Source: Patescibacteria group bacterium (GTDB lineage Bacteria; Patescibacteriota; UBA1384; XYA2-FULL-43-10; 1-14-0-10-43-13). From it: 64,000 nucleotides of DNA. The notes under the pieces were generated by a model that saw only the letters and a program-made list of their open reading frames with translations, made no database searches and had not been told where the DNA came from. The stretch is from positions 3,581-67,580 of the forward strand of contig JBAZNP010000001.1 in assembly GCA_041649155.1 (NCBI GenBank), in the 5' to 3' direction. Position numbers and translations under genes: made by a program. Below, one piece after another: positions 5,528 through 63,504 of this stretch. Numbering within the stretch: position 1 is the first letter of the stretch; every line of letters starts with the position of its first letter.

Positions 5528-5562
5528 GTCATTCCGGACTTGATCCGGAATCTATATAAATA
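5528..5562 (+). repeat. Palindromic MITE-like element, family Q (gtcattccggacttgatccggaatctatataaata)
   Basis: Near-identical copy at 8520-8554, with a compensatory G:C versus A:T pair in the stem. It lies in the divergent RT/avd promoter region. Confidence 0.8.
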
Positions 5563-8519: not shown

Positions 8520-8586
8520 GTCATTCCAGACTTGATCTGGAATCTATATAAATAGTAGCTGGATCCCGTATCAAGTACGGGATGAC
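8520..8586 (+). repeat. Composite palindromic MITE-like element (modules Q and P, gtcat...atgac termini) in the rpmI-rplT intergenic spacer
   Basis: gtcattccagacttgatctggaatctatataaatagtagctggatcccgtatcaagtacgggatgac holds two hairpins whose loops, cttga and tcaag, are reverse complements. Confidence 0.8.
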
Positions 8587-9057: not shown

Positions 9058-9128
9058 GTCATCCCCGCGAAGACGGAGATCCACAAAAGAAAATACTATC
9101 AGTAGATTCCCGCCTTCGCGGGAATGAC
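9058..9128. repeat. MITE-like element, family D (gtcatccccgcgaag...cttcgcgggaatgac), with terminal inverted repeats
   Basis: Related copies at 10676-10733 and 39063-39170 share the agacgg(a/g)gatccac and agtagattccc segments. Confidence 0.75.
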
Positions 9129-9137
9129 AGTGATTGA

Positions 9138-10675: not shown

Positions 10676-10733
10676 GTCATCTCCGTGTAGACGGGGATCC
10701 ACTAATAGTAGATTCCCTTCTTCAAGGGAATGA
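10676..10733. repeat. MITE-like element, family D copy
   Basis: gtcatctccgtgtagacggggatccactaatagtagattcccttcttcaagggaatgac. Confidence 0.75.
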
Positions 10734-10866
10734 CAGTGGATGACTTGCAATTTGTAATTATCATCAGAGAGAATCGTTAATCTATCCCTAAATATTATAG
10801 CCTGTTATTGACCAATGTTGTCAAGGATTGCTAAAATATATTAAGAAGAAGTAAAAAAAGGATCAA

Positions 10867-25683: not shown

Positions 25684-27750
25684 ATGCAAAAGGTACAATT
25701 TAAAATTCATTCGCGTTACTCTCCGACCGGCGACCAACCGGAAGCTATTTTAAAATTATCTGAAAATATTAAGAAAAAAGTTAAACATCAAACCCTCTGG
25801 GGAGTGACCGGAAGCGGCAAAACTTTTACTATTGCCAATGTTATAGAAAAAACTCAAAAGCCGACCCTTGTCATTGCCCATAATAAAACTCTGGCTGCTC
25901 AGCTTGCTGATGAATTCAGACAATTCTTTCCAGAAAATGCAGTTCATTATTTTGTTTCATATTATGACTATTACCAACCAGAAGCATATATTCCTCATTC
26001 CGACACTTATATCGAAAAAGATTCTTCTATAAATGATGAAATTGATCGCCTCCGACATGCCGCGACTCATGCTCTTCTAACTAGAAGCGATGTCATCATT
26101 GTAGCTTCGGTCTCTTGTATTTATGGTATAGGTTCGCCTGAATTTTACAGAGCGGAAAATTTTACATTCAAGGTCGGGGAGAAAATTGAAAGAGATTATT
26201 TTTTGCACCAGTTAAATAATCTGCAGTTCAACCGCAATGACATCGAATTAAAAAGAGGCACGTATCGCCTTCATGGAGATACTTTGGAAATTTTTCCCGC
26301 TTACGAGACAAACACTGTAAAGGTAGAATTTTTTGGAGATAGTGTTGAAAAAATTATTGAAACTGACTGGATAACCGGCAAACAGGTAAAACAGCTTGAA
26401 TCGTTTGAAGTATTTCCGGCGAAGCACTTTATTACACCAGAAAACTTACAAAAAGAAGCAATAAAAAACATCAAGAAAGATCTTGAAGTTAGGGTAAATA
26501 GCCTAAAAAAGGCAGACAAATTGCTTGAAACCCAAAGGATCGAGCAGAGAACAAACTTTGACTTGGAAATGATTGAACAAACTGGATCTTGCTCCGGCAT
26601 TGAAAATTATTCAAGATATTTTGACGGACGAAAGCCAGGCATTCCGCCGACAACCCTTATTGATTATTTCCCTGACGATTTTTTAATGGTGATTGATGAA
26701 TCACACATAACTGTTCCACAAATCGGCGCCATGTATGCAGGAGACCGGTCAAGAAAAGAAAAACTTGTTGATTACGGTTTCAGACTTCCATCCGCTTTTG
26801 ACAATAGGCCATTTAGATTTGATGAATTTTACCACAAAATAAATCAGGTAATTTTCACGTCAGCAACCCCAAATGATTTTGAGTTAAGAAAAAGCTCTAG
26901 TGAGAATGTCATTTCGACCCATCCCGAGCCCACCGCTGGGTGGATCGAGGGAGGCGAGAAATCCCATCGCAATGCCGATAAACCTCAACCATATGATGGA
27001 GTTGTGAAACAATTCATAAGACCAACAGGCCTTCTTGATCCAAAGATTGAAATTAAAAAAACCAAAGGTCAAATAAATGATTTGATTGAAGAAATTAATA
27101 AAAAAGTAGTCAAAAATCAAAGGGTGCTAGTTACAACTCTCACTAAAAAAATGGCTGAAGCCCTGACAGATCATTTATTAGATCACAAAATTAAAGTGGC
27201 CTATATTCACTCTGACGTCGAGACGCTTGAACGTACTGAAATTTTGCACTCTTTGCGCTTGGGCGAATATGACGTTTTAATCGGAATCAATCTGCTTCGA
27301 GAAGGTCTTGATTTGCCAGAAGTTTCACTTGTTGCCATACTAGATGCTGATAAAGAAGGCTTTTTGCGAAGCAGAACCTCCCTGATCCAAACCATCGGTC
27401 GGGCAGCACGACATGTTGAAGGCAGAGTCATTATGTATGCCGATGTCATGACAGAATCGATGAAAATTGCAATTAACGAAACAAATATCAGAAGAGAAAT
27501 GCAAGAAAAATATAATAAAGATCACAACATCACGCCCAAAAGCACAGTGAGAAAACTTGAGCCCAAAGAAATTAAGGAAGAAAAAGAACAGCTTGAGATT
27601 GATCTGTCATTTAAAAAACTTCCAAAATCAGAAAAGAAAAGTGTTATTTCTGAGTTAAATATTCAGATGAAAAAAGCAGCGCAGCAGTTAGAGTTTGAAC
27701 ATGCTGCCCGCCTAAGAGATCAGATCACAAAACTTGAGAGTATGATATAA
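25684..27750 (+). CDS. uvrB: Excinuclease ABC subunit B
   Basis: [15 protein letters not shown] Walker A, helicase motifs and a UvrB/UvrC interaction C-terminus. It carries a ~25 aa insertion from a palindromic element. Confidence 0.9.
26908..26968 (+). repeat. In-frame palindromic element, family C, inside uvrB
   Basis: gtcatttcgacccatcccgagcccaccgctgggtggatcgagggaggcgagaaatcccatc encodes [21 protein letters not shown] second copy at 29706-29767 differs only by 5 transitions. Confidence 0.8.
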
Positions 27751-29085: not shown

Positions 29086-30246
29086 ATGAAGTACTTTGTT
29101 AAAGTCTATGGCTGCCAATATAACGAATGGGATGCAGCCAGAATAAGCTACATGTTAAAAAGCATCGGCTTGATTGAATCGTCCGAAAAGGATGCCGATA
29201 TTATTTTTGCATTGTCTTGCTCAGTTCGCAAAAGTGCTGTTGACCGCATAATGGGAATGGTCAAAAATTGGCAAGGCAAAAAGGTCGTCATTACAGGCTG
29301 CGTTCTTCCAAATGATAAACCAAAATATTTAAAAAAGAACGTCATTCTTTGGGATAATAAAAAGCCGGAAGATTTGAAAGATATTCTCCCACACTGTCAT
29401 TCTGAGCAAAGCGAAGAATCTCAAGATCATTCAGCTACGCCTCAAGATGACAAAATTAGCAAACTATTAAACAGCGGCAATTCCTCCTCCGCCTATCTCC
29501 CAATAATGATAGGCTGCAATAATTTTTGCTCTTATTGCGCCGTCCCATACACCAGAGGACGCGAAGAATCCAGACCCTTTAATGAAATCATGAGTGATTT
29601 CAAAAAAATGGTTGAAAAGGGATACAAAGAAATAATGCTCTTAGGCCAAAACGTAAATAGCTACAGAATTCAGAACGCAGATAACAGAATACAGCAAAAC
29701 AAAGCTGTCATTTCGACCCATTCCGAGCCCACCGTTGGGTGGATTGAGGAAGGCGAGAAATCCCATCACGATAAGTCTGGCTTTGCCATACTACTAGAAA
29801 CCTTAGATAAAATCCCAGGTGATTTCATGATTTCATTTACTTCAAACCATCCAAAAGATATGACTGATGACATTATTACTGCAGTTAAAAATTTACCAAA
29901 AGTGAAGAAAGAAATTCACCTGCCGCTTCAATCCGGAAGCAATGAAGTTTTAAAAGCAATGAACCGACCCTATACCATAGAGAAATATTTAGAACTAATC
30001 GAAAAAATAAAGAAAGAAATTCCGACTGTTTCGATTACAACCGACATTATTGTTGGTTTTCCGAACGAAACGGAAGAAAATTTTCGAAAAACCGTGGAAA
30101 TATTCAAAAGAATCAACTTCAAATCTGCCTACATAAATAAGTACTCTCCCCGTTCCGGAACAGCCGCCTTCAAACTCGGCGACCCAATCCTTTGGACAGA
30201 AAAACAACGTCGCTGGAAAATATTGAATGATATTGCGAATAAATAA
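29086..30246 (+). CDS. MiaB/RimO-family radical-SAM methylthiotransferase (no obvious TRAM domain)
   Basis: MTTase N-domain and the radical SAM CNNFCSYCAVPYTRGRE (CxxxCxxC). It contains two in-frame palindromic-element insertions. Confidence 0.7.
   Translation: MKYFVKVYGCQYNEWDAARISYMLKSIGLIESSEKDADIIFALSCSVRKSAVDRIMGMVKNWQGKKVVITGCVLPNDKPKYLKKNVILWDNKKPEDLKDILPHCHSEQSEESQDHSATPQDDKISKLLNSGNSSSAYLPIMIGCNNFCSYCAVPYTRGREESRPFNEIMSDFKKMVEKGYKEIMLLGQNVNSYRIQNADNRIQQNKAVISTHSEPTVGWIEEGEKSHHDKSGFAILLETLDKIPGDFMISFTSNHPKDMTDDIITAVKNLPKVKKEIHLPLQSGSNEVLKAMNRPYTIEKYLELIEKIKKEIPTVSITTDIIVGFPNETEENFRKTVEIFKRINFKSAYINKYSPRSGTAAFKLGDPILWTEKQRRWKILNDIANK
29396..29420 (+). repeat. In-frame small palindromic element (gtcattctgagcaaagcgaagaatc) inside the miaB-like gene
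   Basis: Encodes the HCHSEQSEES insertion. Same family as the element at 17640. Confidence 0.65.
29706..29767 (+). repeat. In-frame palindromic element, family C, inside the miaB-like gene
   Basis: gtcatttcgacccattccgagcccaccgttgggtggattgaggaaggcgagaaatcccatc encodes VISTHSEPTVGWIEEGEKSH, in the same frame as the uvrB copy. Confidence 0.8.
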
Positions 30247-30285: not shown

Positions 30286-30325
30286 ATGTGATAATTTTTG
30301 CGCGGCCACGATATTTTTATCACAT
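30286..30325. repeat. 40 bp palindromic repeat, copy 1 (atgtgataatttttgcgcggccacgatatttttatcacat)
   Basis: Identical to 30978-31017. It has 9 bp inverted arms atgtgataa/ttatcacat. It overlaps the last codons of the Cas2-like gene. Confidence 0.9.
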
Positions 30326-30946
30326 CAAATCTTTTAATGATAAAACATTTTTATTTAAAAAGTGGTCGATTATCTTATCTTCCCCCATTGCTATGTCTAC
30401 TATTAAGTAAGATAAATATTCTTTTGAACAAGTGAAGAAACAAAGCGCATCGATTTCTTTTTTGCAATCAAACGGGTAGACAAAAACGCTCTCCTGAATT
30501 TTTTCAAAGCCCATTTCTTCAAGTTTTCTTCTAATTATATCTCTTGTCGTTTTTTTCTTCTCTGGCACATCAAATATTACTAAACGAAATTTTTTATCCC
30601 AAATCTTTGGGCGATGTTTCGGCAATTCGCCAAGCTTATGCCACACTATTTTTTTAAATCCCTTATCGGTTAACTCAGCAAACTTTTCATTATTTTTCAA
30701 AAAAGTTTTGATTAATCCCTGTTTTTCTAAGTAATATATATGATTTCTAAAATCGCTAGAGGCATTCATCCTTTTGGCATATTCCTGAACGCTTACCGAT
30801 TGATATGGATTCTTTTCTAGATCGATCAAAAAGTTTTCAACTCCTTCAAATAAACAAACGAATATCTCTTTTGCTGATTGTTTTATTCTTTGCTTAATAC
30901 CCTTCTTTTTTTCAGAGTCTTTTTTTGACTCATTTTCACTCATCAC
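30320..30946 (-). CDS. wHTH (PaaX-like N-domain) fused to a Cas2-like/VapD-fold C-terminal domain; putative regulator
   Basis: RLVIFDVPEKKKTTRDIIRRKLEEMGFEKIQESVFVYPFD matches the Cas2 core (LVxxDVxxxxxxRxxxxxxLxxxGxxxQxSVFxxxxD). The N-terminal YYLEKQGLIK region looks like a winged helix. Confidence 0.55.
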   Translation of the reverse strand: MMSENESKKDSEKKKGIKQRIKQSAKEIFVCLFEGVENFLIDLEKNPYQSVSVQEYAKRMNASSDFRNHIYYLEKQGLIKTFLKNNEKFAELTDKGFKKIVWHKLGELPKHRPKIWDKKFRLVIFDVPEKKKTTRDIIRRKLEEMGFEKIQESVFVYPFDCKKEIDALCFFTCSKEYLSYLIVDIAMGEDKIIDHFLNKNVLSLKDLM

Positions 30947-30977
30947 CCCCCCTTTTTTTTATTTATTATAAAGTAAT

Positions 30978-31017
30978 ATGTGATAATTTTTGCGCGGCCA
31001 CGATATTTTTATCACAT
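30978..31017. repeat. 40 bp palindromic repeat, copy 2, about 30 bp upstream of the Cas2-like gene start
   Basis: Perfect 40/40 identity with copy 1. Candidate operator or recombination site. Confidence 0.9.
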
Positions 31018-31047: not shown

Positions 31048-31575
31048 TTACTCAACAATCTTAATCGGTTTTAGCTTCAAAAAATCTTCTTCTGAGGGAA
31101 TCGCAATCCCTTGGTATTTAAAGTTCTCTCTTTCCCCTCTAGTAAACAAAGTTATATGGGGAAATTGAGATGGAATATTTTTGCCAAGCTTCTCACTAAT
31201 TTTTTTATAAAGAAGTTTAATAGAAGGCATTTCAATAGTTCTAATATAAGATTCTCTATTTTCTAAAATATCGCTACCATCCCAGTAACCGCTTTTTTCT
31301 ATATGGAAAAGATCCTTTTCCTTGTATTCCCAATCAAACTTCAAAAGCAAAGAAAGAATTTTTTTATTTAGCACTTTTTTATCTAGCGATGTATGCTCAA
31401 TTATTTCTCTAACTTTACTACCAGAAAGAATCGTTATATGCCTTGACGTCTGTTCTCGATAACCTTCAGCTAAAGCTCTTTCTTTAATATCAGATACATT
31501 AACTTGATTTGCAGTTAACTCGATACATGAATGTAAATCCGAATTTAAAACTGGTTTATTGGGCTTAATAAGCAT
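31048..31575 (-). CDS. 2H phosphoesterase superfamily protein (LigT / 2'-5' RNA ligase-like)
   Basis: Two H-x-T-x motifs (SRHITILSG and FPHITLFTRG) at the spacing typical of 2H enzymes. Confidence 0.5.
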   Translation of the reverse strand: MLIKPNKPVLNSDLHSCIELTANQVNVSDIKERALAEGYREQTSRHITILSGSKVREIIEHTSLDKKVLNKKILSLLLKFDWEYKEKDLFHIEKSGYWDGSDILENRESYIRTIEMPSIKLLYKKISEKLGKNIPSQFPHITLFTRGERENFKYQGIAIPSEEDFLKLKPIKIVE

Positions 31576-32053
31576 TATTCTCCATTTTGATTATTTCTAG
31601 ACACTCTTTACAGAATCCTGAAAGATTAGTTGGAATGTTATCTAATTTAAAAAATTTTATTTCACTAATTTTTTCTGGCTCCATATTTTTCGGCCCATCT
31701 TTTGTTTTTGCTTGGAAATTAATTCCAGTCCAGTGCTTGTTATCAAAAATAAAATCATTATAGTTAATTAGTTTTTCTTCATAAATTTTCATACCCAGCT
31801 CTTCTTTAATCTCTCGCTGCAAAGCTTCGGCACAAGTCTCACCAAACTCAACTGTTCCACCCGGCATAGACTAACACTCCGAAAACCCCTTTGGCTTTTT
31901 TTCGGTTTTTTTGTGATTGACCAGCAAAACTTCATTTTTGTCATTAAAAATGAGTGCGAAAACCGAAACGCCGATACAGTCTTGTCCTATTTTCATACTT
32001 TTTAATCCTTCTTGGGATATTTTTTCTGTGCCTCGATTGCTATTTTGATACAT
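31565..32053 (-). pseudogene. Nudix hydrolase interrupted by an in-frame TAG (or a read-through gene)
   Basis: The N-part GVSVFALIFNDKNEVLLVNHKKTEKKPKGFSEC ends at TAG (31871-31873). It is followed in the same frame by S-M-PGGTVEFGETCAEALQREIKEELG, the Nudix box. Confidence 0.6.
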
Positions 32054-32340: not shown

Positions 32341-34071
32341 TTATATTATTCCCTTAACAATATCTTCTGTCGACATTAAGCCCTTATCGCCCTCTCCATA
32401 TTTACGAACTGCAACTTTGTTTGCTTCTTTTTCCTTATCTCCAACAATTAGCATGTAAGGAATTTTTTGCATTTCTGACTCGCGAATTTTTTTGCCCATA
32501 GATTCATTTCGCTCATCAACTTCCACTCTAATATTTTTTTCTAGTAACTCTTTTTCAACTTTTTTTGCATATTCTAACTGCTTTTCAGAAATCGGAATAA
32601 TAACTGCCTGAACCGGCGCAAGCCATACTGGGAAGGCTCCGGCAAAGTGCTCTATGAGAAGTGCCATAAACCGCTCATATGACCCCAGAATTGCACGATG
32701 TATCATAACAGGACTTGCTGCCTCACCACCTTCATTAATGTAAGTTAAATTAAATCTTTTTGGAGTGGCAAAGTCCAACTGAATAGTTGGTATTTGGATT
32801 TCCCGACCTGTTGCGTCCTTGAACATAAAATCAAGTTTGGGGCCATAAAGTGCAGCTTCACCTTCACATCTTTTAGCCTCGAGTCCCATCTCATCAGAAA
32901 TTTCCTGAAGTGTTTTTTCGCAAAGATCCCAATCTTTTGTGTCGCCAATATATTTTTCTGGATGTGAGTAATCACGGACAGAAAGAGAGACCCAGTGATT
33001 ATCCCACATACCAAGCGAAGAATAAAAGTCTTTGATAATATTAACAAGATTTTTAATCTGATCTTTAACCTGTGATGGTGTACAAAAAGTATGGCCATCT
33101 TCGCAAGTAATAGCATAAACCCGATTAAGGCCTCCGACTTCGCCTGATTTTTCAGCCCTATACTGCTTCTCAGATTCCATATAGCTAATTGGCAAATCTT
33201 TATATGATCTTTGTCTTGATGCATAAATTTGAGTTTGATGAGGACATTGGACTGGCTTTAACACAAAATCATGGTCTTTGGCAGAAGTAACGTGGAATAA
33301 TTCATCTCCAAATTTATCGGCATGACCGGATATTTTATATAAATCGATTTTAGCAAGATGAGGAGTTGAAACTTTTTGAAATCCATATTTTCTGCAGATA
33401 TCTTCAACTTTTTTTTGAAGAGTTTCTCTAATGAAAGTGCCTTTTGGAGTAAAAAGCGGTAAACCAGGTCCAACTAAATCGGAAAAAACAAAAAGATCCA
33501 ATTCTTTGCCAAGCTTACGATGGTCTCTTTTTTCAGCTTCAATTAATACTTCTTCATACTTTTTCAAGTCTTCTGGTGTTTCAAAAGCTAGTCCGTAAAT
33601 TCGTTGAAGCATCTTGTTTTTTTCGCTACCCCGCCAATAGGCACCGGCGATTTTATGAAGTTTGAAACCGATATCTTTCAATTCTCCAGTCGAAGCAACA
33701 TGAGGGCCTTTACAAAGATCAATGAAGCCATCAATGGTGTAGAAACCTGCTTTTTCATCTTCCAATTCTTCAACTAGTTCAGCTTTATACGGTTGATTTG
33801 TTTTTTTAATAAATTCAATTGCTTCTTTTTTTGTTTTTTCATGTTTTTCAATTTTGATATTTTTTTCAATAATTTTACGCATCTTCTCTTCCAGAATTGG
33901 TAAATCTTCGGGAATTAGCGTTCTTGGCAAGTCAAAATCGTAATAAAATCCGTTATCAATCGCCGGACCAATACCAAGCTTTGCTTCCGGAAACATTTCC
34001 AAAACTGCCATCGCCAAGACATGGCTAAGCGAATGACGAACCGTTTCAATGTTAACTTTTTTATCTGACAT
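32341..34071 (-). CDS. thrS: Threonine--tRNA ligase (lacks the N-terminal TGS domain)
   Basis: HSLSHVLAMAV editing-domain HxxxH, class II core, HRAILGSYERFMALLIEHFAGAFPVWLAP, and an anticodon-binding C-terminus. Confidence 0.9.
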   Translation of the reverse strand: MSDKKVNIETVRHSLSHVLAMAVLEMFPEAKLGIGPAIDNGFYYDFDLPRTLIPEDLPILEEKMRKIIEKNIKIEKHEKTKKEAIEFIKKTNQPYKAELVEELEDEKAGFYTIDGFIDLCKGPHVASTGELKDIGFKLHKIAGAYWRGSEKNKMLQRIYGLAFETPEDLKKYEEVLIEAEKRDHRKLGKELDLFVFSDLVGPGLPLFTPKGTFIRETLQKKVEDICRKYGFQKVSTPHLAKIDLYKISGHADKFGDELFHVTSAKDHDFVLKPVQCPHQTQIYASRQRSYKDLPISYMESEKQYRAEKSGEVGGLNRVYAITCEDGHTFCTPSQVKDQIKNLVNIIKDFYSSLGMWDNHWVSLSVRDYSHPEKYIGDTKDWDLCEKTLQEISDEMGLEAKRCEGEAALYGPKLDFMFKDATGREIQIPTIQLDFATPKRFNLTYINEGGEAASPVMIHRAILGSYERFMALLIEHFAGAFPVWLAPVQAVIIPISEKQLEYAKKVEKELLEKNIRVEVDERNESMGKKIRESEMQKIPYMLIVGDKEKEANKVAVRKYGEGDKGLMSTEDIVKGII

Positions 34072-39062: not shown

Positions 39063-39170
39063 GTCATTCCTGAATCAAGTTCAGGACAAGCTCTCGGGAA
39101 GGCAACGCCATGGCCCGAGGATCAAAAATATTAATATACTATTAGCAGATCCCCTTCTTTAAGGGAATAA
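39063..39170. repeat. MITE-like element (family D-related) with a gtcattcctgaatcaagttcaggac hairpin
   Basis: Shares agcagatccccttctttaagggaataac with the 9058 and 10676 copies. Confidence 0.65.
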
Positions 39171-39194
39171 CGATAGATAGCTGCTACTTGCTAC

Positions 39195-45000: not shown

Positions 45001-47440
45001 CCATATCTGTTTTTATAATACTACGATTTCCGGCATTAGCTACATAAACGAATCCGTCATCATAATAAATTTCTTGTGGACCATTAAATTTTCCTTCTCC
45101 ACTCGCGCCGAATATGCCATAAGTTGTCCATCCGGTCCATGAATCGTCAAGTTTGGTTTTAACGATCCTATTATGGCCATCTGAAATATAGAAATACTGA
45201 TCGACGTTATCATACGCGATCCCTTTGGGTGTAGAAAACTTGCCAATGGCGTCGCGGGTGCCGGATGTGCCATAAGTTGTCCATCCGGTCCATGAACCGT
45301 CAAGTTTGGTTTTAACGATTCTAGCATTACTGCTGTCTACAATATAAAGATACGGATTTGCCGGATCATCACTTGGAACCGCCATGATAGCACTGGCACC
45401 TGAGAAGTTGCCAACACCGGTGCCGCTAGACCCCATTGATAGCAGACCTGTCCCATCAGATTTAATTCGAGCAATACTAGTACCAAGAGTATAGTAAATA
45501 TAATCATTAACAGAATCATAATAAATTTTACTCACAGAGCCAGCGACATTGATAGTTTTTTTTGAATTTGACCCATCTAATTTCAGAATAGTAATAGTTG
45601 AAACACTTGAATACTTTTCAGCTACAAACAAATTTTGACTTGCTTCGTCATAATAAAATGATTCCAGAGTAAAATTAGGAGAATTAGTAGAGTAGGCGCT
45701 CCAATCAGTACCGTCGAAATTTGTTTCAATTATTTTATCACCATCGACATTAGTAGAAAATGTATTACCAATAAACATTTTCCCAGATACATTATCATAA
45801 TAAAACTCTGTTACTCCATTGAAGGGGCGACTAGCACTCAAAGACCTTGGGCTTTCATCAGATCCCACCGCATGCCAACCCGATATTGATGTAGTATCTT
45901 CTCCAGTCCAACCCAACACGGTATGAGAAGCGTCATTATCAAAGACTTGAATACGATTATTTGTAGTATCGGCAACATAGATTTTGTTGTTTGAGTCAAG
46001 AGTCACTCCAGAGGGATGAGCAAAATTGTAATCGCCAGAACCGGTCACTCCTACTTTGCCAGAGCCGACATCATGCCAGCCAGCATCAGTGCTGCTCTTC
46101 CCCATCCAGCCCAACATGGTGTGAGAAGCGTCATTATCAAAGACTTGAATACGATTATTTGTATACTCGGCAACATAGATCCTGTTGTTTGAATCAATAG
46201 CCACTCCACGAGGAGCATTAAAATTATAATCGCCAGAACCGCTTGTTCCTATTTTACCGGAGCCCAGCGCATGCCAGCCAGCATCATTAGCGCTCTTTCC
46301 CATCCAGCCCAACATGGTGTGAGAAGCGTCATTGTCAAAGACTTGAATACGATGGTTCGAATACTCGGCAACATAAATCTTGTTGTTTGAATCAAGAGCT
46401 ATTGCATAGGGAAGATTGAAATTGTAATCGCCAGAACCGGTCACTCCTACTTTGCCAGAGCCGACATCATACCAGCCAGCATCAGTGCTACTCTTTCCTA
46501 TCCAGCCCAACATGGTGTGAGAAGCGTCATTGTCGTAGACTTGAATACGATAATTCCCATAATCGGCAACATAGAGTCTGTTGTTTGAATCAAGAGCCAC
46601 TCCTTTAGGACTATTAAAACTGTAATCGCCAGAGCCGATCGCTCCTGTCCCGTCGGAGCCAATATCATGCCAGCCAGCATAAGCGCTGCTCTTTCCAATC
46701 CAACCCAATGGAGAACCTGCATTGTCAAAAATTTGAATTCTATGATTAGTACTGTCGGCAACATAAATATTGCCGCTACTGTCTACAGTTACGCCCGATG
46801 GAACATTTAACTGTCCGTCCCCAGTTCCAGATAAACCAAAACTACGCCAGCCCGTAACACCGTCGGGTTTTACGACTACAATACGATTATTACTAGTATC
46901 GGCAATATACAAAAGATCGGTACCTGCATGATAAAAAACGGTCTGAGGAGAATTAAAGCCTCCATCCCAATCCCCCTCGATCACTCCGGGATATTTTGCC
47001 TGTAAAGAAATCATGCCTTCGGAATCACTCAAGTTGCTCGATGCTGAATATTTTAAAGTTTTACCATTTGTTAACTGCGCCGCTTGCCCCATTTCATTAT
47101 AGCCAGGACTTACCAAACTAGCCGGAGTACCATCGTTGGAAGCGGCAGTAGAACCAAGCCCGCTATCTGCGTTCAAACTGCCTGCATTATAATTGGCGGA
47201 AAAACCATTTGCCGCCTTAGATAACCTCACATCAACGAATAAACTACTCAATATCAAACCTATAATAGTAGTAGCGCATAAACCAAGTGTCGCAAAATGC
47301 ACTTTCTTGTGATGAGGATGATGATGCCAGTCATGGTATTTTTCTGATTTAGAACACAAAAATTCATGCGCTTTTGTAAGCGGTTTAATCTTTGGAGTCG
47401 AACAATTAGGACAATTGCAATAAGTCAAAACCTCCTCCAC
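42026..47440 (-). CDS. Giant (1804 aa) type II membrane surface protein with an NHL-repeat beta-propeller and FN3-like and LamG-like domains
   Basis: N-terminal CNCPNCS...C zinc ribbon, His-rich HDWHHHPHH, then a TM segment. At least six near-identical NHL repeats (YVADSTNHRIQIFD, YVAEYSNHRIQVFD, ...). LamG-like LDWTRDSWHSISASY. Confidence 0.7.
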   Translation of the reverse strand: MEEVLTYCNCPNCSTPKIKPLTKAHEFLCSKSEKYHDWHHHPHHKKVHFATLGLCATTIIGLILSSLFVDVRLSKAANGFSANYNAGSLNADSGLGSTAASNDGTPASLVSPGYNEMGQAAQLTNGKTLKYSASSNLSDSEGMISLQAKYPGVIEGDWDGGFNSPQTVFYHAGTDLLYIADTSNNRIVVVKPDGVTGWRSFGLSGTGDGQLNVPSGVTVDSSGNIYVADSTNHRIQIFDNAGSPLGWIGKSSAYAGWHDIGSDGTGAIGSGDYSFNSPKGVALDSNNRLYVADYGNYRIQVYDNDASHTMLGWIGKSSTDAGWYDVGSGKVGVTGSGDYNFNLPYAIALDSNNKIYVAEYSNHRIQVFDNDASHTMLGWMGKSANDAGWHALGSGKIGTSGSGDYNFNAPRGVAIDSNNRIYVAEYTNNRIQVFDNDASHTMLGWMGKSSTDAGWHDVGSGKVGVTGSGDYNFAHPSGVTLDSNNKIYVADTTNNRIQVFDNDASHTVLGWTGEDTTSISGWHAVGSDESPRSLSASRPFNGVTEFYYDNVSGKMFIGNTFSTNVDGDKIIETNFDGTDWSAYSTNSPNFTLESFYYDEASQNLFVAEKYSSVSTITILKLDGSNSKKTINVAGSVSKIYYDSVNDYIYYTLGTSIARIKSDGTGLLSMGSSGTGVGNFSGASAIMAVPSDDPANPYLYIVDSSNARIVKTKLDGSWTGWTTYGTSGTRDAIGKFSTPKGIAYDNVDQYFYISDGHNRIVKTKLDDSWTGWTTYGIFGASGEGKFNGPQEIYYDDGFVYVANAGNRSIIKTDMDSFWETYDGTPPSQVLLQSSNSTNSLRLEIDPFRGKVRFYPSYNSSTPNNSTYLESATLDWTRDSWHSISASYKQSTGELSLTVDGVTTSTTTSWSAPAPNYGDDFYVGSVPGGGFDTFSGLIDKLKIFDVSSDLVNPSSPTNLTSLSASGGDEIISNEDHWHNHANPYFSWSGDSDTNGIDGYYVYFGTSNTADPEETSGVLNADGSVYWTESPNATVAGALVSGSTYYLRVKIKDNFGNSTIWDPTVSSKAFKYQYENTLPTNPSYVSSSPSGYSSVNDYTFLWPAGSDAGSGLSGYKYKTGGGDYANWSNITTELQVTLNGAWYQEGSNIFYLKTIDNAGNESSPVQATFYHNDSAPSAPQNLTASPESSEQNPSASNNFSFSWSKPATFSGNESALKYYYSINETPNSTNITLSTTLSLAADSYATRQGQNTIYVVAKDEAGNINYDIYASASFWAITPAPGTPTAVSAVDGSNRDLASYKVFLTWSEPQDKGAGFMGYNVYRSTDGINFSQAGTTTSTTFADTSLSSQAYFYNVESEDNAGQTSVASSTVQIVPTGKFSNAPIIKNEKLDVVEKAYSATISWETTDVDPKVVHKASSFVEYGTDPNKIGQENGGETKGQLSLTDQHSVTITGLQPGGALYYYQAVWVDENGNEGRSEKMSFRTLARPIVSVAPVDNISLNSATISYTTSIPTTTSIVYSKDKDEIDKGAGKVEEVETGYIQNHTINLSGLDHSSKYYYYILGSDVDGNKMDFGAKNDFNTLTMPAITNGVRSDQDTTAPTTTYRFSWETNVETTTIINYESSSGQKLSRSSADYTINHDLIIPDLADMSTYKFIVTGRDKYGNEIETPFTTSIDTPKDSRSPKISNMTIEVKSSGFGTSQKAQVVVTWETDEPGTSQVEYEQGISGSEYKNKSKEDAVLSTSHVVIVSELESNKIYHLRAISKDNAGNAGYSDDTTTITGKTQSSVIDIIVDSLQKSLSWIMGIFK

Positions 47441-58883: not shown

Positions 58884-59473
58884 TTCATCTCCTTATCGCC
58901 TTTAATGATACTCATATTGATTCGAAGATATGAAACGGTTAATTGATAAAACCATTTTGCCAGGAACCAGCAACCAATTAAAAACAAAATACTGAATCCA
59001 GTCAAAGCAATAAAAAGGAATAACAGAGCAAGGGGCGTAATTCCAATATTAATTAGCGGATTAGCAAAGTTAGGAATGATTATAGCGGCGGCTGCAATTA
59101 AAAAACCGACCACACCAGAAGCAAAAGCCGCTACGCCGGAAGCAATGAGACCACATAAAATGAATAAAAGGCCAAAAAATGGAAAAGCGATAAAAACTAA
59201 ATTAAAAAAACTTAATCCCGCAGTCGCAAGCACTGCTCGCACAATGCTACTGGCAGAAATTTTATCGTCCGCTTTCCTTATATGGTGATCAGCCCTAAGC
59301 TGTCTAGCAATAGATGAAGGTTCGCCTAACGATTTAGCAATTTCGTTCTCGCTTCGTCCTGATTCTTTTCCTGCTCGAAAATGTTCCTCATAATCAGAAA
59401 TAATGTCTTCAACTTCCGATTCCGGCAAACTTTTTAGAGACCCTCTTAATTTTTTAATAAATTGTTCTTTCAT
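58880..59473 (-). CDS. DUF1700-family membrane protein (PadR-associated sensor)
   Basis: [55 protein letters not shown] is the canonical DUF1700 N-terminus. It has a C-terminal multi-TM region and overlaps padR by 4 nt. Confidence 0.7.
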
Positions 59474-59787
59474 TTTTTAAATTCCCCTAATAACTGATTA
59501 ATATTTATATTAAATTCTTTCCATTCTTTTAATAATTCTTCGCTGGCTACCTTACCTTTTTTAGTTAAACGATAATATTTTCGAGGAGGACCGTCTGTTG
59601 ATTCTTGAAGATAGGTATCAACATATTCTTCGTTTTTTAAACGACGAAGTAAAGGATAAATTGTTCCTTCTGAAATAGCGATTGTTTTGGAAATATCACT
59701 AACCAATTCATAGCCATAACAATCTTTGCGTTCCAAAACAGTCAAGACACACATTTCCAAAACACCTTTTTTTAATTGAGTATCCAA
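59470..59787 (-). CDS. padR: PadR-family transcriptional regulator
   Basis: [23 protein letters not shown]...[16 protein letters not shown] is a winged helix of the PadR family. Confidence 0.85.
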
Positions 59788-59985
59788 GTTAGCTCCTTAA
59801 ATAGCTATTATGCATTACACAGTACTATGTTATATATACCACAATATGATTTTCTGTCAACATTTACAGAGAGCTATTTTAACTTCATATAGCAATATTA
59901 CCAGTCTGAGACATAATAATATTATTAGATTTATTTTGTGAAAAAAGGAACGCAGTCCCCTTTTGATCTCATCTTTGGCTTTTTA

Positions 59986-62443: not shown

Positions 62444-63504
62444 TGAAACATATCCCCGTTTTAAAAAATGAAGTTTTGGAAGCGTTCAGCTATCTTAAAG
62501 ACGTCAAGAATAGCTTTTTTGTTGATGGTACGCTCGGATTAGCAGGCCACAGCTTGGCCATAGCCGAACAATTTAAAATTCAAAAAATAAAATTTAAAAT
62601 TATGGGTATCGATAAAGATAAAACTGCTTTGAGGTTAGCAAAAGAAAATATTGAAAATACAGGCTTTATAAATAATTTTTTATTTGTGCATGATGATTTT
62701 AAAAATATCGAAGAAATTTTAAAAAACTTGCGTCATTCCAGACCTGATCTGGAATCCAGAAATACCACAGGCAAACCAACTTCCTGGATCCCGGATCTCA
62801 AGCTTACAGTCCGTGATGATGAGTCTGATAATGGTAGCTTGATGATCAACGGAGCGCTAATTGATCTTGGTGTCTCATCGATGCAATTAGACGACAAAAA
62901 AAGAGGGTTTTCTTTTTCCGATCCAGAGGCAGCTTTGGACATGAGAATGGATCAAACTCAGGAGTTAAGTGCTTTTGATGTTTTAAATTACTATCCGCAA
63001 CTAAAACTGGAAAAAATATTCAAAGAATATGGAGAAGAAAAATTTTATAAAAATATCGCAAAAAATATTTGTAAAGACAGAAAGATCAAACCAATTGAAA
63101 AGGTCGGTGAACTCTTGGACATCTTAGAAATATCGATCCCAACCAAAATAAGAAAAACCAGTAAAAAACATTTTGCAACCGGAACTTTCAGAGCATTGCG
63201 GCTTGAGGTCAATCAGGAATTAACAAAACTTGATACGACACTTATGAATTTTATAAATGCTCTCAAAAAAGGTTCAAGGTTAGCTGTTATATCTTTTCAC
63301 TCAACTGAAGATAGAATCGTAAAGGAAACCTTTAGAAAAGCTGAAAATCCATGTGTCTGTCCTCCCTTAGCTCCAGTTTGCACATGTGAAAATGTTTCTG
63401 CCGTCAAGATAATAACCAAAAAGCCGATTATTCCGTCAGATCAGGAAATAGCAGAAAATCCTCGTTCTAGAAGCGCTAAATTAAGAATAATTGAAAAACT
63501 ATAA
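62444..63504 (+). CDS. rsmH: 16S rRNA (cytosine1402-N4)-methyltransferase RsmH (ORF open from 62368)
   Basis: MKHIPVLKNEVLEAF, DGTLGLAGHS, DLGVSSMQLDD and a C-terminal RsmH domain. It contains a ~30 aa in-frame palindromic-element insertion. Confidence 0.85.
62732..62820 (+). repeat. In-frame composite palindromic element (modules Q and P) inside rsmH
   Basis: gtcattccagacctgatctggaatccag...ggatcccggatctcaagcttacagtccgtgatgat is the inverted homolog of 37704-37788. It encodes HSRPDLESRNTTGKPTSWIPDLKLTVRDD. Confidence 0.75.

Follow-up and report, generated by a model that had tools for sequence, protein, structure and literature searches.

Results

A gene bracketed by two copies of one palindrome

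This report concerns one gene and the DNA on either side of it in a 64-kb stretch (the window) of a 798,787-bp contig, which belongs to a metagenome-assembled genome of the Patescibacteria (candidate phyla radiation, CPR). The gene encodes a protein that joins a winged helix to a Cas2-like domain, and it lies between two identical 40-bp palindromes (Table 1). The preliminary description of the locus was right about this local arrangement: the palindromes are exact copies with 9-bp, perfectly complementary arms, one standing upstream of the gene in the position of an operator and the other overlapping the stop codon. What that description missed is that the arrangement is conserved across a large protein family.

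Table 1. The bracketed gene and its flanking elements (window coordinates).
Feature	Position	Strand	Basis
Gene for winged-helix + Cas2-like protein, 208 aa from GTG	30320-30946	-	open reading frame
Upstream palindrome (U), putative operator	30978-31017	.	exact repeat
Downstream palindrome (D), identical to U, same orientation	30286-30325	.	exact repeat
TATAAT -10 hexamer, gene's own promoter	30965-30970	-	read from sequence

The window contains exactly two copies of the 40-mer, ATGTGATAATTTTTGCGCGGCCACGATATTTTTATCACAT; no third copy is found there at three or fewer mismatches, and extra half-sites are no more frequent than chance. By shuffling, the number of such repeats expected by chance is zero. 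The identity between the two copies stretches to 43 nt if one mismatch is allowed. The palindrome is an imperfect one, and the inner 22 nt that separate its arms are asymmetric. Read in the orientation of the gene, U consists of a 9-bp box (ATGTGATAA), a 6-bp A/T spacer (AAATAT), a GC core (CGTGG-CCGCG), a second spacer (CAAAAA) and a second box (TTATCACAT).

U lies 31 nt ahead of the GTG codon and 34 nt ahead of an ATG at 30943, which is the start implied by the 207-aa protein in the NCBI record; a G-rich ribosome-binding site is present at 30946-30952. The TATAAT hexamer begins 7 nt past the end of U. A consensus scan of the region returned no full -35/-10 pair and no -35 consensus, the palindrome itself taking the -35 position, and U, which lies over the -35 and the spacer of the gene's promoter, stands in the classical position of a repressor site. 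At the other end, one arm of D supplies the last Met codon and the stop codon (ATGTGA), and D is placed where this gene converges, 3' end to 3' end, with a MiaB-like gene (end at 30246).

A PaaX-like protein that retains the Cas2 signature

The protein had been described as a winged helix followed by a Cas2-like, PaaX-like domain, outside any CRISPR (short palindromic repeats, clustered and regularly interspaced) context, and this assignment is borne out, with the qualification that the protein is not PaaX. The Pfam family PaaX_M (PF20803) matches residues 115-184 (E = 4.2e-16; 59.3 bits, cutoff 24). In an AlphaFold2 model (mean predicted local distance difference test score 79), an N-terminal helix is predicted to precede a winged helix at residues ~50-95 and a beta-alpha-beta-beta-alpha-beta domain at 120-183, within a Cas2-like ferredoxin-fold domain of residues ~116-185; the best Foldseek match to the model in the PDB is PaaX of E. 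coli W (8A39, E = 2.6e-5), with the PaaX-like structures 3L09 and 3KFW next in rank. Profile alignment with hhalign pairs residues 53-184 with PaaX of E. coli K-12 at 93% probability.

The profiles to which the preliminary description had pointed gave a divided answer. Those for Cas2 were just passed (CRISPR_Cas2, PF09827, 25.3 bits vs. 23.8; TIGR01573, 27 vs. 24.5), in both cases over only the first ~40 profile positions, but there was no Pfam match to the effector domain PaaX_C, PaaX_M being matched in its place: the protein stops ~24 residues past PaaX_M. The score against the PaaX equivalog TIGR02277 was 35.4 bits, far from its cutoff of 264.55. PADLOC gave matches to Cas2 models alone and PHROGs gave none; Pfam found no HUH/Y1 domain in the protein, and Pfam and NCBIfam no serine or tyrosine recombinase domain.

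Compared with PaaX as known from E. coli and Pseudomonas (8A39, 3L09, 3KFW), the protein has the same order of domains, i.e., an N-terminal winged helix and then a Cas2-like central domain, but at 208 rather than 316 residues it does without PaaX_C. The gene also differs from paaX in that it is part of no paa operon, has a second copy of its site at the stop codon, and belongs to a family that is, among the loci retrieved, almost restricted to Patescibacteria and represented by several paralogues per genome.

The C-terminal domain is, by profile comparison, nearer to true Cas2 proteins (3EXC, E = 8e-4; also 6JHZ, 8IA4 and 2IVY) and to VapD (3UI3) than to a solved PaaX-like protein (3KFW, E = 1.2). 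It shares with Cas2 and VapD the ferredoxin fold, the Asp of the first beta strand ('lvifD(i/v)p') and a 'Q-x-S-V-F' strand, and in the alignment with 3EXC, D126 pairs with the Asp of the YDV motif. Across 234 sequences of the family, which are about 180-210 aa long, D126 and S153 are invariant (100%), and R135 (99%), Q151 (98%), W116 (99%) and D117 (98%) are nearly so; the winged helix is variable in the same sequences. Where the family has D126, R135 and Q151, the residues of E. coli PaaX are E, L and A.

The NCBI label of the protein is 'CRISPR-associated endonuclease Cas2', and a gene set between two ~40-bp palindromic repeats superficially echoes repeat-spacer-repeat. Stand-alone Cas2 proteins measure about 90-100 aa and carry no fused winged helix, and the repeats here number two and surround the gene itself, with no leader. 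There is no CRISPR-like array within the 64 kb and no cas1 among the neighbouring genes, which encode UvrB, L25, MiaB-like, 2H-phosphoesterase-like, NUDIX, MazG-like and threonyl-tRNA synthetase (ThrRS) proteins; nor were cas genes found among about 135 neighbouring open reading frames (ORFs) of homologous loci. We know of no nuclease activity in this protein family.

Recurrence of the bracket across the family

The family has at least 553 loci in bacterial and archaeal species-representative genomes, often several per genome, and 997 clusters at 50% identity that match the family profile at E <= 1e-30; a scan of viral contigs found no member on them. We retrieved 80 homologous loci from species-representative genomes, almost all of them metagenome-assembled genomes of Patescibacteria, and in each locus aligned the sequence upstream of the gene to that at the stop codon. 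The score exceeded the 99th percentile of shifted-window controls in 57 of 81 upstream/stop pairs. When the comparison was anchored on genes, 57/79 family genes scored at least 19.5 and 70/79 at least 16, as against only 2 of 80 other ORFs of the same loci (Mann-Whitney p = 2e-22), and these two owe their scores to unrelated repeats (a MITE-like element, after the miniature inverted-repeat transposable elements, and tandem pilin genes). Within the control set, a membrane-protease-like ORF (locus L048, 2078-2773) is seen between two ~100-bp MITE-like repeats of another kind.

The matching segments are palindromes of 34-48 bp whose sequence differs from gene to gene, and even the paralogues of one genome (MHUW01: L037, L053 and L064) carry differing palindromes. 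A relative with 91% protein identity (L001-L003) has the same bracket as the window: the downstream copy forms a perfect 20+20 palindrome (ATGTGATAAAAATATCGTGG followed by CCACGATATTTTTATCACAT) that overlaps the stop codon, and the upstream copy shares nucleotides with the stop codon of the NUDIX gene before it. A relative with 50% identity, in an unrelated context (L27, L19 ... AbiEii), has a different pair, AAATGTCAG...GCGATCGC...CGACATTT. Between orthologues the palindromes have diverged less than the sequence around them (L056 and L062 agree at 38/40 positions of the downstream copy, or 95%, vs. 75-80% in the flanks), and orthologues keep syntenic positions across 65-95% nucleotide divergence. 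The bracket is thus a conserved property of a large family, not a local oddity.

Housekeeping genes adjoin the family members on both sides, and they are spread over 87 Pfam families upstream and 79 downstream, on which ground we rejected the idea of a conserved partner gene. No recurrent partner, recombinase, transposase, cas or paa gene was found beside family genes in the 69 upstream and 66 downstream loci with neighbours.

The preliminary description had added that further copies elsewhere would make the repeats another MITE family. Other short hairpin repeat families do exist in the window, and a repeat present in two copies might be a chance occurrence or a small member of such a dispersed family (MITE or repetitive extragenic palindrome, REP). 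But chance predicts no match at all, the two copies always bracket this gene family, and a third copy of the palindrome is found in the flanks of only 2 of 50 loci (L051 and L085). A scan of metagenome contigs with ATGTGATAA-N22-TTATCACAT gave 86 matches, none having the CGTGGCC centre and none beside a family gene; these are chance matches, and the scan thus yielded neither a further copy nor an empty site. With two copies in 64 kb, a bracket at 70 of 79 homologues and no HUH/Y1 domain of the kind that REP-associated tyrosine transposases (RAYT) would bring, we rejected REP/RAYT and MITE repeats as an explanation, and the chance or dispersed-repeat account has next to no probability.

Several details of individual loci deserve record. 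In L051, a divergent ORF of 173 aa, without a Pfam match, has a perfect third copy (1460-1495) at its 3' end, giving the order palindrome-ORF-palindrome-family gene-palindrome, and in L085 the extra copy is in tandem, 60 bp upstream. The three assemblies L001, L002 and L003 are independent of one another, and all end 51-166 bp past the gene, just beyond the downstream palindrome; the shared contig ends may reflect a repeat or population heterogeneity at that point. Elsewhere in the window, an ORF at 59473-59796 (minus strand) weakly matches the family profile (E = 2e-4) and is probably an unrelated winged-helix protein.

A literature search for genes laid out between their own palindromes returned no description of such an arrangement, most subscription papers being outside its reach. 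On a conservative reading, what is new is a PaaX-like family that lacks the effector domain, retains the Cas2 motifs and has each member bracketed by its own, diverging palindrome.

Anatomy and position of the half-sites

In 50 loci we compared the four half-sites (two per palindrome) position by position from the dyad. All four are identical at distances 1, 2, 3 and 4 in 0.92, 0.80, 0.88 and 0.92 of the loci, and these positions form a core common to the family: with A at position 1 (82%), C at position 3 (89%) and G at position 4 (81%), it reads GCNA-TNGC, the hyphen marking the dyad. Typical cores are GCCATGGC, GCTATAGC, GCGATCGC and CCTCGAGG. Distances 5-9 form an A/T-rich, poorly conserved spacer (all four identical in 0.38-0.62 of loci), and distances 10-17 a box that is again conserved within the locus (0.74-0.92) and specific to it. 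The site in the window follows this plan, with ATGTGATAA as its box, 6-bp A/T spacers that are unlike in the two halves, and CG(T/C)GG as the core. Its geometry (9-N22-9, vs. 8-N18-8 family-wide) is compatible with an operator of the PaaX type.

The boxes vary in step with the DNA-binding domain. Similarity between boxes correlates with similarity between winged helices when the Cas2-like domain is controlled for (partial r = 0.18, permutation p = 0.0005), and the converse comparison, of boxes with the Cas2-like domain, shows no correlation (r = -0.03, p = 0.82). The correlation is modest, and shared ancestry is controlled only in part.

The two palindromes of a pair differ in their relation to promoters. 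TATAAT-like hexamers peak at +15 to +30 nt, counted from the centre of U, where there are 37 against 12 at D, and many of the upstream ones are extended -10 elements (TGnTATAAT) that touch the palindrome; behind D there is no -10 peak family-wide. In about 27 of 52 loci, no more than 10 nt separate the stop codon from D's left edge.

If the palindromes acted independently of any protein, as RNA or DNA hairpins, they might be bidirectional intrinsic terminators or stem-loops that stabilize mRNA, a role that the preliminary description had entertained as a bidirectional structural element. The 40-mer can indeed fold (a stem of 9-10 bp, -13 kcal/mol, z about -3 to -4), and the placement of D between convergent genes would suit a terminator. 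This explanation does not accord with the remaining evidence. T-runs of at least four follow only 4% of the downstream copies; a terminator scan found no intrinsic terminator at either copy in the window, whose genuine terminators are unlike the palindromes and consist of an A-run, a stem and a T-run; and a transcript started at the -10 box would exclude U. Moreover, terminators need neither match each other nor track one gene family. Because the spacer (positions 5-9) is not kept complementary while the centre itself, where a loop would need no palindrome, is palindromic, the site has the anatomy of one for a symmetric dimer and not of a hairpin. Nor is there a signal of an RNA strand, because G:T and A:C arm mismatches are equally common on the sense strand (61 and 57). 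With equal mismatches, an unpaired spacer and no T-runs, we rejected RNA hairpins, and protein-independent hairpins as a whole are very improbable.

Discussion

A probable autoregulator with two sites of its own

The possible explanation that we favour is that both flanking palindromes are binding sites of the protein encoded between them and that this protein represses its own gene. Of the possibilities raised in the preliminary description, autoregulatory operators are the one toward which the sequence evidence points, and we consider it probable, though well short of assured. Four observations argue for it: U abuts the -10 box, both in the window and family-wide; the half-sites have the core, spacer and box anatomy typical of protein recognition; the box co-varies with the winged-helix domain; and the excess of G:T over A:C that an RNA hairpin would be expected to produce does not occur.

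In such a scheme the protein would be a dimeric DNA binder of the PaaX type, in which the Cas2-like domain serves for dimerization. The winged helices would read the gene-specific outer boxes, the A/T spacer would be free of selection, and the GC-flanked dyad core would be touched or bent by some conserved portion of the protein. Binding at U would then occlude the gene's own promoter and bring about autorepression, as PaaX does at Px. For PaaX itself, the operator TGATTC-N27-GAATCA spans 39 bp, and repression of Px, its own promoter, comes about through steric hindrance of RNA polymerase (PMC9493321). Judged by sequence, the window site, with its widely spaced inverted repeats, appears to have a similar geometry to this ~39-bp operator.

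The most likely role of D would be to cooperate with U, looping out the ~650-bp gene between them; alternatively, protein bound at D may be a roadblock between the transcription unit and the genes next to it, in a genome that is very compact. A promoter site with a second cognate site hundreds of bp away is familiar from LacI (O1/O2), GalR (OE/OI) and lambda CI (OL/OR), and in lambda the repressor gene likewise lies between its two operator regions. The present case differs from these looping repressors in that the second site is at the 3' end of the regulator gene with no adjoining promoter, and in that the layout is conserved across the whole family despite the diverging sequences of the sites.

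Several observations sit less easily with autoregulation. It would require a regulator whose visible targets surround only its own gene, with no obvious use to the host, as judged from a search for other targets that covered the 64 kb and about 200 kb of flanks elsewhere. D has no promoter-like position, and any role assigned to it is a guess. A pure dimerization role for the Cas2-like domain fails to explain why D126, R135, Q151 and S153 are 98-100% conserved when PaaX has mostly replaced them. Finally, in L037 and L026 both copies are perfect palindromes but their outer arms differ, which is a poor fit to a single specificity.

A different use for a dimer bound at palindromes would be to organize chromosomes: the protein might nucleate on them as on a centromere-like element and then spread along or bridge DNA. 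In the PDB, the sequences that match the N-terminal domain best are those of AspA (E = 3e-4), MarR-type proteins and TubR, among them two winged-helix centromere binders, AspA and TubR, and centromere-binding proteins commonly autoregulate from sites beside their own gene. However, these matches amount to generic winged-helix similarity, there is no gene for a partner NTPase near the gene in any locus, and genomes contain several paralogues, each with a different site. Given also that the fixed position of U at the -10 box is a requirement of operators, a centromere-like function seems quite improbable.

A possible but unlikely rearranging cassette

That the Cas2 residues are so strictly conserved invites a more radical proposal: that the protein is a Cas2-derived, sequence-specific enzyme acting at the GCNA-TNGC dyad, and that gene and palindromes together form a self-rearranging or self-mobilizing cassette. 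The winged helices would dock one dimer on each palindrome, the Cas2-like domain, which retains the metal-binding Asp of Cas2, would nick or cut the dyad core or exchange strands there, and the segment would invert, excise or integrate, such that the two copies are products of recombination or duplication and not merely operators. We regard this as unlikely, but not so unlikely that it can be passed over.

The protein itself provides part of the case. The Cas2 signature is invariant in 234 sequences while the DNA-binding domain varies, and the C-terminal domain is nearer to true Cas2 and VapD nucleases than to solved PaaX proteins, PaaX having lost the signature residues. In Cas2 dimers, the Asp residues of the first beta strand face each other on the two-fold axis; because they are on that axis, the core, which is placed exactly at the dyad family-wide, would lie at the twin Asp residues. 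To our knowledge, however, Cas2 alone does not act as a recombinase, and no recombinase is encoded near the gene in the neighbourhoods of the retrieved loci.

A second line of evidence comes from the relations among half-sites. By their spacers, the four half-sites of a locus fall into direct (19), symmetric (13) and inverted (5) classes, with 13 ties, and the site pairs are oriented directly in 30 cases, inversely in 15 and symmetrically in 13. The occurrence of all three pairings indicates that some process copies one half-site onto another. These classes are what exchange at the dyad, or half-site conversion, would yield, and dyad exchange would interconvert the identical asymmetric pair of the window and the two different perfect palindromes of L079, L037 and L026. 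The classes can equally be explained through template switching at quasi-palindromes: half-site conversion or quasi-palindrome correction accounts for them as well as inversion does and is required in cases such as L015 vs. L017, for which reason we rejected them as proof of inversion. Furthermore, the mixed orientation of the sites would not be tolerable for a directional recombination system.

Genome comparison, too, can be read in both directions. Breaks in synteny or indels coincide with the outer edges of the palindromes in several pairs (window vs. L001, L056/L062, L064/L067 and L057/L061): the window and L001 differ by a 580-bp 2H-phosphoesterase gene whose presence or absence falls precisely at the upstream palindrome's outer edge. 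In L060 and L082, shared flanks surround different family members (only 50% identical) in opposite orientation, several paralogues per genome occupy unrelated housekeeping contexts, and there are relatives whose ThrRS-to-MiaB interval is without the gene. Against this, intergenic indels are to be expected in any case, and no inverted, excised, circular or empty-site form was observed among the loci compared. Close relatives (89-95% nucleotide identity) all retain the cassette, orthologues remain syntenic over deep divergence, and near-identical copies in different contexts are absent. As for the interval lacking the gene, the nearest ThrRS relatives, at 71-73% identity, have a variable ThrRS-to-MiaB interval too diverged to show a lone palindrome.

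Among known systems, Hin/hix, Xer-dif and integron attC provide the obvious comparison, since each has a segment about as long as a gene with short imperfect palindromes, built around a central core, at its two ends, and in the case of Hin the gene for the enzyme is inside the segment. The window gene differs in encoding no serine or tyrosine recombinase, in having sites that are specific to the gene and mixed in orientation, and in showing no alternative arrangement.

Implications

The window protein is mislabelled as Cas2, and its relatives probably are too: they are not components of CRISPR systems, and if the relatives carry the same label, surveys of CRISPR in the CPR would miscount them. 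The presence of a Cas2 signature within the architecture of PaaX links the Cas2/VapD nucleases to the PaaX regulators. Each gene has its presumed site twice in cis, so that the family offers hundreds of natural pairs of protein and site with diverging specificities, which could be used to work out a recognition code for winged helices or to build orthogonal repressors. CPR bacteria have tiny genomes and few regulators, yet maintain several of these self-bracketed genes, which points to further targets or to another reason for their upkeep.

If the Cas2-like domain does act on the centre of the palindrome, gene and sites would be a new kind of DNA-rearranging element, and the protein the first of the Cas2 fold to act on double-stranded repeat DNA without Cas1. 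It could then be a living intermediate among Cas2/VapD nucleases, PaaX repressors and the proteins that recognize repeats in CRISPR adaptation.

Other features of the window

The neighbourhood of the gene is itself changeable. The interval from ThrRS to MiaB (which in the window includes 31048-31575, minus strand; also in L001 and L172-L176) is a variable islet that across relatives contains MazG-like, NUDIX and 2H-phosphoesterase genes, two NUDIX genes, or genes for CYTH, HD, YdjM or 23S-rRNA-IVP proteins. The NUDIX gene at 31565-32053 (minus strand) has an in-frame stop where its L001 orthologue has Trp (SEC*SMPGG vs. SGCWSMPGG), which could be due to a pseudogene, a sequencing error or read-through. 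The ThrRS gene (32341-34071, minus strand), compared with that of L001 (1389-3104), is about 85-90% identical in its N- and C-terminal parts and about 40% in the catalytic middle, a mosaic that suggests replacement of an internal segment by recombination. We had considered horizontal transfer of the bracketed gene, given 91% identity of its protein against 59% for ThrRS, but with ThrRS a mosaic this contrast is no evidence for it.

Short repeats other than the 40-bp palindrome are of several kinds. A GC-rich repeat of 67 nt, 91% identical between its copies (26907-26973 and 29706-29772), is present in frame within the UvrB-like and MiaB-like genes, where it adds the peptide STH(P/S)EPT(A/V)GWIE(G/E)GEKSH and leaves the ORFs intact; it resembles a small mobile insert whose translation is tolerated. 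Two families of short, GC-rich hairpin repeats (9095-9137, 10701-10743 and 39138-39180; 5528-5562, 8520-8554 and 62732-62766) both have a GTCATTCC-like end, are unrelated to the 40-bp palindrome, and are possibly the MITE family mentioned in the preliminary description. At 45897-46708, a 198-bp unit occurs four times in tandem (82-87% identical), probably as the coding region of a repeat domain.

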